Notes: generated by a model not told the origin, from the letters alone. DNA of 64,000 nt from an uncultured Bacilli bacterium (GCA_947625505.1 CANQON010000001.1:28950-92949), one strand, 5' to 3'; counted from the stretch's first letter, positions 49,737 to 64,000 are shown. Numbers and translations: made by a program.

Positions 49737-51329
49737 ATGAACGAAAAGAAAACAGTATTATTTTTAATGAATGGATTTGGAACTGAATCCGCTAAATCAT
49801 TTGAAGTATATTCTAAAGAAGTAATGCCTACTTTTGATACACTTATTAACGCTTATCCATTTAAATTATTATTTGCATCAGGTGAATTAATAGGCGCTAA
49901 TAAAAATGAAGTATCAAATTTTAAGACAGGATACTATAACTTTAGTAGTTTTGGACATCCAAGTAAAAAAGAAGATGTTTTAAATAGTAAAATAGCTGCT
50001 AATGAATTTAATAATAATCCTGTTATCAATAATAGTATTGATATAGCTGTTCAAAATAAGTCTAATTTACACATTGTATTTACTTTAGGTGATAAGGTAA
50101 ATAATGAAAGATATGAACATTTAAAACAATATTTAGAATTAGCTGTATCTAAAAACGTTGGTAAGATATATGTACACCTTATTTTAGGTGATAGTAGTAC
50201 AAGAGGATTAAAAATAGGAAGTCAATGCTTAACTAATTTTAAAAATAGAGTTTTACGTTATTATCCTCAAATTATTGTTGCATCACTAGCAGGAAGAATG
50301 TATGTAAAAAATGGATCTGCTAATGATATTGCTAACTATTATCGTATGATGGTTAGTGCCGTAGGAGAAATATGGACAGATTACGAAGCAACTTTAACAA
50401 AAAAATATGAACACGGTATGAATGATGATAATATGATTGCATTCTTAACTATACGTGAAAATATGTTACTTGAAGGTGACAGCATCTTTATGTTTAACTA
50501 TAGTAACAATATAGCAAGACAATTTTTAGATGTTGTTATAAATCCAAAAAAGTATTTTCCAACTAGTAATGTACCAGAAAATATTCATATTAACTCTTTA
50601 TTTACTATTAATAATTTGCCTCAAATACCACGTGCTTTTGAGGATGCTGTACCAGATACTTATTTATTAGATAAAATACCTGATACAAAAAAAGTCTTAA
50701 TTATGGCTACTAAAGAGCGTATACCTTATGTTAGTAAAACATTAAATGGATTTAGGCCTTCATTTAAAAGCAATGTTAGTGTATGGCCAATAGAAGATCG
50801 TAAAAAGAGATTTCAAAGCATTAGTCAGTATTTAGCTGCCTATATTAATCAAGATATATATGATTTAATAATCGTTGATTGTGAATTATATGATGAAGGT
50901 GCTGATGAACGTACGATAGCTAAAGTAATAGATAACATGAAAGAATTAGATAAATGTTTAAATATTACTTATCATCGTGCTATGGATAAGAATTATCGTT
51001 TAATAGCAACTTCATTATATGGAATTAAACAAAGATTTAAGTTAACAGCAACTATGGAATTAGTTGATTTATCACAAAAGACCCCATTCTTACTTGTTGA
51101 TAAAGAAATAAGAAGATTAGATATAGTCTTTAAAAATGAGGGAACATTTATTGATGTAGCTCGTTTAATTGCGATATCTTTTGGTTCTCAAATGTCAAAT
51201 AACTTAATTCAAATAGAAACAGTCGAAGAAAAGAAAAGTAGTAACAAAAAGAAATATATTATATTAGCTATACCAATAGCTATCTTATTAATATTGGTTA
51301 TAGCGTATATTTATATGATGTATTTTTAA
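49737..51329 (+). CDS. catalytically degenerate iPGM (GpmI) paralogue with a C-terminal TM anchor; first gene of the T7SS-like locus
   Basis: It aligns along its length with the window's own GpmI: VLFLMNGFGTE vs VLCIMDGVGER; LLFASGE vs LLEASGT; LHIVFTLGD…KIYVHLILGD vs LHIMGLISDGG…NIYLHLCTDGRD; LIIVDCELYDEGADERTIAKVIDNMKELDKC vs [31 protein letters not shown]. The catalytic Ser motif and the metal ligands DH/GH/DHG are lost. It ends with a hydrophobic helix, KKYIILAIPIAILLILVIAYIYMMYF. Confidence 0.7.
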   Translation: MNEKKTVLFLMNGFGTESAKSFEVYSKEVMPTFDTLINAYPFKLLFASGELIGANKNEVSNFKTGYYNFSSFGHPSKKEDVLNSKIAANEFNNNPVINNSIDIAVQNKSNLHIVFTLGDKVNNERYEHLKQYLELAVSKNVGKIYVHLILGDSSTRGLKIGSQCLTNFKNRVLRYYPQIIVASLAGRMYVKNGSANDIANYYRMMVSAVGEIWTDYEATLTKKYEHGMNDDNMIAFLTIRENMLLEGDSIFMFNYSNNIARQFLDVVINPKKYFPTSNVPENIHINSLFTINNLPQIPRAFEDAVPDTYLLDKIPDTKKVLIMATKERIPYVSKTLNGFRPSFKSNVSVWPIEDRKKRFQSISQYLAAYINQDIYDLIIVDCELYDEGADERTIAKVIDNMKELDKCLNITYHRAMDKNYRLIATSLYGIKQRFKLTATMELVDLSQKTPFLLVDKEIRRLDIVFKNEGTFIDVARLIAISFGSQMSNNLIQIETVEEKKSSNKKKYIILAIPIAILLILVIAYIYMMYF

Positions 51330-51411
51330 TTTTATCTTTTAATTAAAAATGAAATGTGATATCATTATAGAGTAGAAGACTATAAGATAAAGGAATATAG
51401 AGGGTGAGAGT

Positions 51412-51663
51412 ATGAATAAAGTTCTTGTTAATATATACGTACCTCTTATTGAACAAGAATACAATTTATTTATCCCAGTTAATCGTAAGATTGGCTTGGT
51501 GAAAAAAATAATTGGTCATTCAATTGTTGAATTATCTGACGGAAATTATCAAATAGAGGGCTACTTCAACCTTTATAATAAAACGACAAATCGTGTTTAT
51601 GATGATGATACTTATGTAATAAATACCGATATTCGTAATGGTTCTAAACTTATCTTATTGTAG
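51412..51663 (+). CDS. YukD/EsaB-like ubiquitin-fold T7SS protein
   Basis: 83 aa. The YukD/EsaB pattern is present (VLVNIYVP…YNLFIPVN.KIG.V…NTDIRNGSKLILL). RBS GAGGGTGAG precedes the ATG. Confidence 0.7.
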   Translation: MNKVLVNIYVPLIEQEYNLFIPVNRKIGLVKKIIGHSIVELSDGNYQIEGYFNLYNKTTNRVYDDDTYVINTDIRNGSKLILL

Positions 51664-51679
51664 TTAGGAAAGGTGAGTT

Positions 51680-51958
51680 ATGGATAATATTTATATTGAT
51701 TATAATCAAGGAGCTACTTTAGGTCATAAGATTCAAGGTGAATCTACAGACTTAAAAAATCTTCTTGATCGATTAAGGGAAATACAAGAGCAATTAAAAC
51801 CAATGCTTAATGATAGTAATGATGAAAAATATGTAAAAACAATTGATGGTGAATTAAAAGTTATGGAAAAATTAGCTGAGACAATAGATGAAACAGGAAG
51901 CTTCTTAGTTAATGTTTCTAATGCTTATCAAGATGCTGCTGAAAGCATTCATAGTTAG
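51680..51958 (+). CDS. small Esx/WXG100-superfamily-like helical protein lacking the WxG motif
   Basis: 92 aa, predicted helical hairpin, no Trp. It is directly upstream of a bona fide WxG gene within a T7SS locus. RBS AAAGGTGA precedes the ATG. Confidence 0.5.
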   Translation: MDNIYIDYNQGATLGHKIQGESTDLKNLLDRLREIQEQLKPMLNDSNDEKYVKTIDGELKVMEKLAETIDETGSFLVNVSNAYQDAAESIHS

Positions 51959-51966
51959 GTGATATT

Positions 51967-52227
51967 ATGGATAATAAATTAACTTATTCAGAAATAATTT
52001 CATTAGCTGGAAACTTAAAAATGGTTTCTGGACAAATAGAAGATTTACTATCAGTTTTAAAAGAACAAGACTATGCAAGAATTGGTGACGGAGGAGATGT
52101 TTGGACAGGAGATGCCGCATTAATGGCACGCCAAACATTCGATGAATTAGTTACTCGCTTTCCAGAATTTATTAATTCAATAAATGATTACGCTGACTAT
52201 TTAGTTAATGTCGTAGCGTCAAGATAG
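51967..52227 (+). CDS. WXG100 (EsxA/YukE-like) protein
   Basis: 86 aa with a central W-x-G (GGDVWTGDAALMARQTF) between two predicted helices. RBS AGGTGA precedes the ATG. Confidence 0.7.
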   Translation: MDNKLTYSEIISLAGNLKMVSGQIEDLLSVLKEQDYARIGDGGDVWTGDAALMARQTFDELVTRFPEFINSINDYADYLVNVVASR

Positions 52228-52243
52228 TTGTAGGAGGAAATAT

Positions 52244-62839: not shown

Positions 62840-62893
62840 AAGAATTATATAATTCTTCTTTTTTTACAAAAAAAATAAGGTAAAACCTTATTT
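62838..62893. terminator. convergent pair of intrinsic terminators
   Basis: + strand: GAAGAATTAT/ATAATTCTTC palindrome followed by T7. – strand: AATAAGGT-aaa-ACCTTATT with T8 on the complementary strand. Confidence 0.8.
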
Positions 62894-63199
62894 TATGATT
62901 TGTATTCTTTCTTTAATTACGGTTGCATCAATTTTATCAAAAAGATCACAAACTTCTAAAGAAGTATTATTCATTTCAACAATGCTAGTATTAACATAGT
63001 CTTTAATAAGCACACAATTACCTTTAACTTTACGTATTGCCTCAGGCAAAGCATTTAAATAAGTTCGGTAACTAAATCCTGATGGAATATCTAATCCTTC
63101 AGCTATATTAATAGCTGAAATTAATTCATCGATACCATCATCAATAACAGGCATAAAATAAGATTTTAAGCCATTCGTATTAATAAGTAATTTACTCAT
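62888..63199 (-). CDS. small helical protein (about 103 aa) in the minus-strand Esx-like cluster
   Basis: It overlaps the upstream gene by 8 nt (coupled). It is acidic and predicted alpha-helical. No WxG. Confidence 0.5.
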   Translation of the reverse strand: MSKLLINTNGLKSYFMPVIDDGIDELISAINIAEGLDIPSGFSYRTYLNALPEAIRKVKGNCVLIKDYVNTSIVEMNNTSLEVCDLFDKIDATVIKERIQIIK

Positions 63200-63506
63200 T
63201 ATTTATTTCTACCTTTCGCATAGTCGTTTCAATTTTCTCAGCTGTTTCTTGAAATAGCATACCGAATCTTTTTAAGTTATTATATAAGTTTATATATATT
63301 TCTTTTTCTTGCGTGACTTGAGCGATATATCTATCTGCATCATCACCTTGCCAACCATCTTCACGAGTATTTAAATTACTAATATAAGTAAAAATTGTTT
63401 CAATTATTTCTTCATAGTCATCTGCTAAAGCTACGATATCTTGACCACAAGATTTTATTTTTTTAGTATCACAATCAATACTAGTCATTATTTCTTGTTC
63501 CTCCAT
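63192..63506 (-). CDS. WXG100-like protein (104 aa) with a central WxG
   Basis: …TREDGWQGDDADRYIAQV… is a central W-Q-G between two helical segments, the WXG100 (EsxA/Lap-like) hallmark. Confidence 0.55.
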   Translation of the reverse strand: MEEQEIMTSIDCDTKKIKSCGQDIVALADDYEEIIETIFTYISNLNTREDGWQGDDADRYIAQVTQEKEIYINLYNNLKRFGMLFQETAEKIETTMRKVEINNE

Positions 63507-63520
63507 ATAATAGTAGCATC

Positions 63521-63835
63521 CTATATTTTATCAGCATTTAAATCCAATTCATGAAGACGTGTTATTTCAATATTTAGTTGAGCAATACGACTATTTATCG
63601 TTGGTATTATTTTAGTAATTAGAATATTGTAGATATTATTAATAGAATCAACACTATCTTTTAATTTACTATTATCAGCAATATCACTATCAATACGGTA
63701 GTATTTACCTAATTGATTAGTGGCACTTTCAATATTCGTTGTACTAGTATTTAAGTGTGAACAAATACTTTTTATATTATCCATTAATTTATAATATCTA
63801 TTACGTTCATATTCTAATTCTGATATTAAAGACAT
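63521..63835 (-). CDS. small helical protein (104 aa), Esx/Lap-like helper candidate
   Basis: RBS GGAGG is 6 nt upstream of the ATG. Coiled-coil-like composition and the same size class as its neighbours. Confidence 0.5.
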   Translation of the reverse strand: MSLISELEYERNRYYKLMDNIKSICSHLNTSTTNIESATNQLGKYYRIDSDIADNSKLKDSVDSINNIYNILITKIIPTINSRIAQLNIEITRLHELDLNADKI

Positions 63836-63847
63836 TGTAAGCCTCCG

Positions 63848-64000
63848 CTACATTTTACCTTCAAATGAGAAGCTAGTAGCATCTCCACGTACATCTGTAT
63901 CGACAGCTTCACTTTTAGCACTATATTCTTCTTTAGCTGTTTTTAAAGCTTGAATAGTAGCATCAATACGATGAATAACACCAGTTTTAACTGTTTCACA
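63848..64000 (-). CDS. 3' end of a minus-strand gene truncated by the window edge
   Basis: The reverse-complement reads …CETVKTGVIHRIDATIQALKTAKEEYSAKSEAVDTDVRGDATSFSFEGKM followed by TAG. The next gene begins 12 nt downstream. Confidence 0.4.
   Translation of the reverse strand, partial: CETVKTGVIHRIDATIQALKTAKEEYSAKSEAVDTDVRGDATSFSFEGKM

Follow-up and report, generated by a model that had tools for sequence, protein, structure and literature searches.

Does a gene cluster with two genes for the ATPase EssC specify a type VII secretion system (T7SS) of reduced composition, or are the missing components EssB, EssA and EsaA of a canonical T7SSb encoded elsewhere in the genome? This question is raised by a stretch of 64,000 nucleotides (hereafter the window) from an uncultured Bacilli bacterium (GCA_947625505.1, CANQON010000001.1:28950-92949), in which an island that begins at position 51412 and runs beyond 64000 carries both essC genes. 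A preliminary description of this region had proposed the two possibilities side by side. The reduced, EssC-centred system proved to be the better supported of the two, given a five-gene form of the island in a related genome (locus L014), approx. 25 related loci and ratios of nonsynonymous to synonymous substitution rates (dN/dS) of approx. 0.1-0.2. The island probably encodes a non-canonical, reduced T7SS whose only recognisable machine parts are an FHA-bearing EssC and a YukD-like protein with a ubiquitin fold, and which would export proteins without any EssB-, EsaA- or EssA-like partner.

The absence of EssB, EssA and EsaA homologues in and around the locus, as first described, holds for the window and for the 10 kb beyond its right edge (approx. 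74 kb in total). A Pfam scan of all the window's open reading frames (ORFs), down to a length of 120 aa, gave no match to YukC/EssB (PF10140), EssA (PF10661) or EsaA, the last of which lies outside Pfam coverage, and in an NCBIfam scan of the locus proteins the models of EssB (TIGR03926), EssA (TIGR03927) and EsaA were all unmatched. Two canonical T7SSb loci taken from annotated records, of Listeria monocytogenes (L058) and of a Bacillus mycoides plasmid (L059), served as positive controls, valid in the case of Pfam for EssB and EssA (and YukD); they scored 470 and 433 bits, respectively, for EssB, 129 and 81 bits for EssA, and 55 and 53 bits for YukD. Custom profiles of EssB, EssA, EsaA and EsaB, each built from the two canonical copies, were run against 7710 six-frame fragments from the window and 57 fetched loci. 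No profile gave a significant match: the best E values were 1.5 for EssB and 0.47 for EssA, and the best match of the EsaA profile (13 bits, bias 8), on a polytopic 245-aa ORF at 11366-12103, was dismissed as hydrophobic bias.

Size and topology lead to the same result. The only ORFs in the window exceeding 700 aa are those of IF-2, PolC, DnaE, IleRS and the two EssC proteins, which leaves no candidate of the size of EsaA (approx. 1000 aa), and none of the ORFs of 350-500 aa has the central membrane segment of EssB. One of these, a 475-aa ORF at 25856-27283, was considered as a diverged EssB and rejected as a soluble coiled-coil protein lacking a membrane segment. Within the island the intergenic gaps do not exceed 92 nt, too little to conceal an unannotated gene for a small membrane protein, and no membrane segment was predicted in any small island ORF of the window. 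A polytopic protein on the left flank (47981-48547) is, as previously reported, only 188 aa long, with five predicted membrane segments. The possibility that essB or esaA lies just past position 64000 was examined in contigs (locus L002) which carry an identical copy of the last complete gene of the window (63521-63835) and reach 10 kb past its edge; none of the genes there encodes EssB, EssA or EsaA.

The composition of the island is best seen in comparison with its relatives. It consists of two adjoining modules: the first comprises genes for a YukD-like protein, two WXG100-like proteins, a DUF4176 protein and EssC1, and the second comprises genes for EssC2 and another YukD-like protein together with six genes for small helical proteins, three of which lie beyond the window. 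All genes between 49737 and 62839 are on the plus strand; the small helical genes that follow are on the minus strand and continue past the window end. In L014, from a rabbit-gut metagenome-assembled genome (MAG; GCA_947588685.1; EssC 81% identical), only five genes are found between a backbone gene for a pseudo-iPGM (described below) and spoIVA, namely those for a YukD-like protein of 83 aa, WXG-like proteins of 92 and 85 aa, a DUF4176 protein of 449 aa and an EssC of 1545 aa, with spoIVA immediately after. L018 (78% identical) and the window have the second module in addition. All ORFs of the island are intact, and at least five MAG species have retained the same layout.

EssC1 (1544 aa; 53267-57901) and EssC2 (approx. 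1531-1533 aa; 57994-62595) score 1006 and 973 bits, respectively, against the EssC equivalog model TIGR03928 (cut-off 778). EssC1 has a tandem-FHA N-terminus, two membrane segments and FtsK/SpoIIIE ATPase domains (Pfam models FHA and FtsK_SpoIIIE), and FHA is present in EssC2 as well. The best PDB sequence match of EssC1 is YukB of B. subtilis (9qks, E = 1.5e-123). Residues 1-255 were modelled with a predicted local distance difference test score (pLDDT) of 85, and the best matches of this model are the tandem-FHA regions of Geobacillus EssC, YukB and S. aureus EssC (5fwh, 9qks_H and 1wv3). Our reading of the sequences is that the phosphothreonine-binding Arg and Ser of typical FHA domains are replaced in both EssC proteins, as in T7SSb. 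EssC1 is 32% identical to Listeria EssC, and BLAST did not align the FHA region of the two.

The two EssC proteins of the island are 42% identical, the first ATPase domain being far more conserved than the rest, and the Walker A motif of this domain is intact in both. Purifying selection acts on the genes for EssC1, EssC2 and the two YukD-like proteins: in comparisons with species-level relatives, dN/dS amounts to 0.11-0.16 for EssC1, 0.20 for EssC2 and 0.08-0.11 for the YukD-like genes, all rough values with dS near saturation. A neighbour-joining tree of 43 EssC sequences follows the type of gene neighbourhood. EssC1 falls within a clade with the layout YukD, WXG, WXG, further genes, EssC (pattern III), and EssC2 is sister to a clade of 12 loci with the layout EssC, YukD, a lipoprotein of approx. 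555 aa, six small helical proteins and DUF4176 (pattern I). The placement of EssC1 and EssC2 in different subclades indicates that two systems have been set side by side, and not that one gene was recently duplicated.

The first gene of the island (51412-51663) encodes YukD-like protein 1 (83 aa), the putative counterpart of YukD/EsaB and equivalent of TsxB. It was unmatched by the Pfam YukD model (PF08817), an hhalign comparison with canonical EsaB gave a probability of 3.8% (not significant), and a profile of 21 YukD-like proteins did not retrieve the YukD or EsaB structures from the PDB. The AlphaFold2 model (pLDDT 91.8) shows a ubiquitin fold, and among PDB folds it is matched best by the ubiquitin-like domain of EccD5 from the ESX-5 T7SS (7npt_D8; E = 5.8e-6, template modelling score 0.73), followed by other ubiquitin-like proteins. 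The assignment to YukD/EsaB is thus suggested by predicted fold, size and position next to essC, and fold comparison was the only method that detected the likeness. A YukD-like homologue adjoins EssC in 36 of approx. 46 loci.

Two putative WXG100-like helical proteins are encoded downstream. The first, A1 (92 aa; 51680-51958), does not contain a W-x-G motif; it matches Pfam WXG100 with E = 0.0028 and TIGR03930 with E = 0.006, and was placed by blast clustering in a WXG cluster of 101 members. The second, A2 (86 aa; 51967-52227), contains a W-T-G motif (DVWTGDAA) and matches Pfam WXG100 with E = 7e-4 and NCBIfam ESAT6_2 with E = 9e-7. As all these matches are below the curated cut-offs, the proteins are called WXG100-like from the matches taken together with size, helicity, position and, where present, the W-x-G motif.

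The fourth gene (52244-53191) encodes a protein of 315 aa, residues 9-83 of which form a DUF4176 domain (PF13780, the Ltc chaperone family; 99.9 bits, cut-off 25), with no predicted membrane segment. The domain is fused to a long Pro/Met-rich tail, encoded by a tandem repeat at 52621-53050, in which Tandem Repeats Finder recognised 4.5 copies of a 96-bp (32-aa) unit (93% matches, score 741). Orthologues in the same position have 245, 449 and 526 aa, which indicates that the tail varies in length. DUF4176 proteins with other low-complexity tails occur in pattern I loci. Known DUF4176/Ltc chaperones are of 70-130 or 200-250 aa and are paired with LXG toxins (PMC12478183). The protein of the island resembles them in its N-terminal 75 residues and in the position of its gene next to essC, whereas the length of 315 aa (245-526 aa in orthologues) and the repetitive tail place it outside both published size classes; moreover, there is no LXG toxin nearby, and no large LXG-type toxin was found in the island. 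The Pro-rich protein could be a structural or exported part of the system rather than a toxin chaperone.

The left border of the island needs to be redrawn. The preliminary description had counted a tail-anchored iPGM-like protein among the membrane proteins of the locus, together with the two EssC copies. As regards the island region of the window, EssC1 and EssC2 are indeed its only membrane proteins, but the iPGM-like protein (530 aa; 49737-51329) is not a member: its gene belongs to the conserved backbone and forms the left border of the insertion. It occupies a fixed position between engB and spoIVA in all five relatives checked. In two relatives (L007 and L057, 44-46% identity) the backbone reads FtsW, an EIIB-like protein, a histidine kinase, GpmI, a small membrane protein, EngB, a 155-aa protein and the iPGM-like protein, after which an ABC transporter or a nucleotidase precedes SpoIVA, with no T7SS gene at the site. 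In L056 and L014 (65-81% identity), T7SS genes begin directly after the iPGM-like gene. Its retention where no T7SS follows makes this gene a backbone marker of the left edge of the island and not a component of the secretion system; the idea that it might replace EssB, as a pseudoenzyme with a membrane anchor, was rejected for the same reason. The island is a horizontally variable segment, extending from 51412 to beyond 64000 between the backbone genes for the pseudo-iPGM and SpoIVA.

The protein itself appears from its sequence to be a catalytically dead paralogue of the neighbouring GpmI (46495-47988) which has gained a C-terminal membrane anchor (a single predicted segment). It scores 107 bits against TIGR01307 (cut-off 331), and in an alignment with the true GpmI of the window Asp11 is replaced by Asn and the catalytic Ser60 by Phe, and the metal ligands of the DxxxH, DH and H positions are no longer present. 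The loss of the catalytic Ser and of the Mn ligands is common to the whole subfamily, which comprises approx. 70 sequence clusters of proteins of approx. 530 aa, all unnamed, with 34-76% identity.

The second module begins with EssC2, directly followed by YukD-like protein 2, as in the 12 pattern I loci. With the ATG at 62585 as its start codon this protein (62585-62839) has 84 aa, and with a TTG at 62564 it has 91 aa; it is a paralogue of YukD-like protein 1 (46% identity, E = 2e-25). The minus-strand genes that follow belong to a block of six genes for helical proteins of approx. 100 aa, whose order (c6, WXG, c5, c4, c7, c8, after their sequence clusters) is kept in at least 12 loci. Within the window lie those of c6 (103 aa; 62888-63199), of a putative WXG100-like protein of 104 aa with a W-Q-G motif (63192-63506; WXG cluster; sub-threshold Pfam matches to WXG100, E = 0.018, and to EspA_EspE, E = 0.008), of c5 (104 aa, no family match; 63521-63835) and the 3′-end of that of c4 (106 aa; 63848-64000, full gene at 9668-9988 of L002). 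The block continues past the window at 9007-9988 of L002. In the window, as in L018, its orientation is opposite to that of EssC2. No toxin gene accompanies the block in either of these loci; the small helical proteins are either the sole cargo, or a toxin is encoded elsewhere.

Beyond position 64000, L002 contains, in this order, three small helical genes, genes for two bitopic proteins of 256 and 391 aa, and those for AsnB, an ATP-grasp protein, Alr, a sigma factor and SpoIVA. The genes for the bitopic proteins (6891-8851 of L002, approx. 1-3 kb past the right edge) are on the same strand as essC. The 256-aa protein has an N-terminal membrane anchor and an ectodomain; the 391-aa protein has approx. 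100 cytoplasmic residues, one membrane segment and an ectodomain with a weak Glucosaminidase match (E = 2.7e-4), and its C-terminal domain is similar to the one found in 573-aa proteins encoded within the T7SS loci L019 and L041. Homologues of the two are confined to close relatives and always adjoin the small-helical block; the genes recur beside it in L014, L017 and L018, and are not found at this site in L007 and L057. Proteins of 383 and 254 aa encoded in L007 were considered as their homologues and rejected, as they showed no similarity.

In the approx. 25 loci of uncultured Bacilli with a related EssC, EssB, EssA or EsaA was never encoded within 10 kb, and the canonical order esxA-esaA-essA-esaB-essB-essC was found in none of 41 genome loci that were clustered. 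The recurrent neighbours of EssC without a family match are the lipoprotein of approx. 555 aa, small helical proteins and DUF4176 proteins. Four recurrent large neighbours (clusters c38, c39, c53 and c58) were examined as possible EsaA proteins and turned out to be the flanking housekeeping proteins Tex, HrcA, FeoB and a P-type ATPase. In a relative with a complete genome of 1.49 Mb (L011), proteins of 424-460 aa considered as EssB, and of 1333 and 1032 aa considered as EsaA, were rejected as toxins, because they share an LXG-like N-terminus, lack a membrane segment, in several cases contain HExxH, and are accompanied by small immunity-like genes.

That locus (GCA_942493215.1; 5263-9882, 14746-18747 and 20105-23203) encodes five polymorphic toxins of 424-1336 aa with one common N-terminal domain, which starts with MA[NSG]YDTN and for which no Pfam LXG match is on record. 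Three of the five contain the HExxH motif, each being followed by an immunity-like gene of 82-96 aa.

The lipoprotein of approx. 555 aa (predicted; lipobox and HExxH, no Pfam match) is the product of the gene next to EssC-YukD, on its downstream side, in 11 uncultured-Bacilli loci (L021, L022, L024, L026 at 14932-16596, L029, L039, L042, L045, L050, L051 and L054). It is a candidate extracytoplasmic component of the pattern I-type layout, and is not encoded in the window. Pattern I loci also encode, upstream of EssC, a differently derived protein of approx. 395 aa with the same topology as the 391-aa protein. A further layout (pattern II; Clostridia MAGs and Ectobacillus) includes a kinase, a PP2C phosphatase, an FHA-domain protein (cluster c17, tentatively DUF6382-like) and a big lipoprotein; the EssC proteins of these loci form a separate clade and are 36-45% identical to EssC1.

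The lack of EssA, EssB and EsaA is in itself already known from the eight subtypes T7SSc to T7SSj, which have nothing in common but a WXG100 protein, a ubiquitin-like protein and the ATPase, and in which these genes are missing genome-wide (Garrett, Higginson and Palmer 2024, PMC11217815). The layout of the island, however, matches none of these subtypes, and a literature search for names of T7SS subtypes later than T7SSj found none. The island shares with the canonical T7SSb (S. aureus Ess, B. subtilis Yuk, Listeria L058) an EssC whose tandem FHA domains, as we read them, have not conserved the residues that bind phosphothreonine, a separate protein of approx. 83 aa with a predicted ubiquitin fold, putative WXG100-like proteins and a DUF4176 protein encoded beside essC. 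It differs in lacking all three of EssB/YukC, EssA and EsaA/YueB, in gene order (YukD-like, two WXG-like, DUF4176, EssC), in having two WXG-like genes instead of one, and in the low identity of its EssC to that of Listeria. In addition, the canonical YukD is found by the Pfam YukD model, which the YukD-like protein of the island escapes.

Among the published variants (PMC11217815), T7SSg, the simplest, is similar in having two WXG100 proteins, a ubiquitin-like protein, an ATPase and one extra protein, with no kinase or phosphatase; in contrast to both EssC proteins of the island, its ATPase TsgC lacks FHA, and it includes TsgL, a beta-propeller protein with DUF5050, and has Tad pilus genes next to it, whereas no DUF5050 or Tad match was obtained in the window or its flank. 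T7SSf, T7SSe and T7SSj resemble the island in an FHA-bearing ATPase, a YukD-like protein and WXG100 proteins. However, T7SSf has the PPM phosphatase TsfF, the DUF6382-FHA membrane protein TsfJ and the AAA+/TadZ protein TsfV, none of which is encoded in the island, and T7SSd, T7SSe and T7SSj have a membrane Ser/Thr kinase (TsxD) and a large Ig-like envelope protein (TsxI), both missing from the island and present in pattern II loci. The presence of FHA excludes T7SSc, with its FHA-less ATPase, kinase, vWA protein, phosphatase and EspG-like protein, as well as T7SSh, whose ATPase likewise lacks FHA. T7SSh and T7SSi also need the EspG-like TshG and the kinase-like TshM; the island has no vWA or kinase-like protein and no unassigned ORF of a size suitable for an EspG-like candidate, although no fold search aimed at EspG was made. 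The sole kinase/PP2C pair of the window (38282-40778) lies in an rlmN-rsgA-rpe housekeeping context, the PP2C gene being 11 kb upstream of the island.

Several observations weigh against a reduced system without partners. The inspection of the genome covered approx. 74 kb, every WXG100 assignment is below the curated thresholds, and the purifying selection rests on dN/dS values that are approximate. An FHA-bearing EssC without EssB is also mildly surprising. In the structure determined by cryo-electron microscopy for the B. subtilis core, YukC/EssB is a central scaffold and binds the FHA module of YukB with the help of YukD (PMC12637312), so that retention of this module might lead one to expect a partner. 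This retention, an EssC above the T7SSb equivalog cut-off and the extent of the inspection would fit a canonical T7SSb with essB, essA and esaA at another site in the genome. We regard that explanation as possible but unlikely: the six genes are contiguous in the canonical loci L058 and L059, none of the approx. 25 related loci from different MAGs has the missing genes within 10 kb, EssC1 is distant from Listeria EssC and not alignable with it by BLAST in the very region in question, and in the published variants the genes are lacking from the whole genome (PMC11217815). The view that the island is a decaying T7SSb remnant, which has lost its membrane components and no longer secretes, is very improbable. 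The lack of three canonical components and of a large LXG-type toxin would agree with it, but intact ORFs and low dN/dS for both EssC and both YukD-like proteins argue against decay, as do the intact Walker A motifs and the conservation of the layout among MAG species.

The missing partners might also have been replaced rather than lost. The 256- and 391-aa bitopic proteins could be unrecognised, non-homologous membrane partners analogous to EssA and EssB, the 391-aa protein perhaps acting like the wall hydrolase EssH, which is reportedly recruited by the T7SSb of S. aureus (PMC13059805). Their genes lie within the variable island, divergent from the helical block, accompany it in three related loci and are missing at the site in the T7SS-less L007 and L057; the Glucosaminidase match, the C-terminal likeness to the 573-aa proteins and the similar topology of the approx. 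395-aa protein of pattern I loci point in the same direction. We nevertheless consider such a role doubtful, since in L014 spoIVA separates these genes from the five-gene module and they are on the other strand, and since the homologues, limited to close relatives, have no family or structural link to T7SSs.

The reduced T7SS would operate as follows. The channel may be an EssC oligomer, held together by the two membrane segments and by the DUF and stalk regions of the protein. The YukD-like protein would brace it at the FHA, DUF and ATPase-1 regions, in the way that YukD supports YukB. WXG-like dimers and the small helical proteins would be substrates or targeting factors. A bolder proposal, which we put forward only tentatively, is that the five-gene module is a complete and self-sufficient T7SS, composed of an EssC oligomer and a ubiquitin-fold brace, with EssC as the sole membrane component. 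This would be a minimal T7SS of monoderms and, as we tentatively suggest, a further subtype beyond T7SSa-T7SSj, common in uncultured gut Bacilli.

The host belongs to an uncultured, spore-forming lineage of Bacilli whose nearest relatives are rabbit-gut MAGs, and the GC content of the window is approx. 28%. The first 49.7 kb contain housekeeping and sporulation genes, encoding MiaA, NusA, IF-2, Gpr, Der, LysRS, AckA, PolC, DnaE, SepF, DivIVA, IleRS, RlmN, the PP2C and PASTA-kinase pair, RsgA, Rpe, trigger factor, FtsW, a histidine kinase, GpmI and EngB. PolC (20646-25457) has 1603 aa and thus seems noticeably longer than is usual for PolC of Bacillota (approx. 1430-1450 aa). The 475-aa protein encoded between PolC and DnaE, mentioned above, is an acidic/basic coiled-coil protein without a family match. 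A scan of the region 49-64 kb yielded no usable signal: promoter-like sites were rarer than in shuffled sequence and no terminators were found.

The FHA domains and the ubiquitin-like partner of EssC have been kept under selection in this lineage with no EssB, EssA or EsaA nearby, in contrast to the EssB-scaffolded core of B. subtilis. The gain is incremental, in that the principle of a shared core composed only of the ATPase, WXG and ubiquitin-like proteins was published in 2024 (PMC11217815). If the five-gene module is self-sufficient, it would offer a small natural test case for the action of EssC and a YukD-like protein alone, and the catalogue of T7SS subtypes would come to include uncultured gut Bacilli, a group that RefSeq-based surveys miss.

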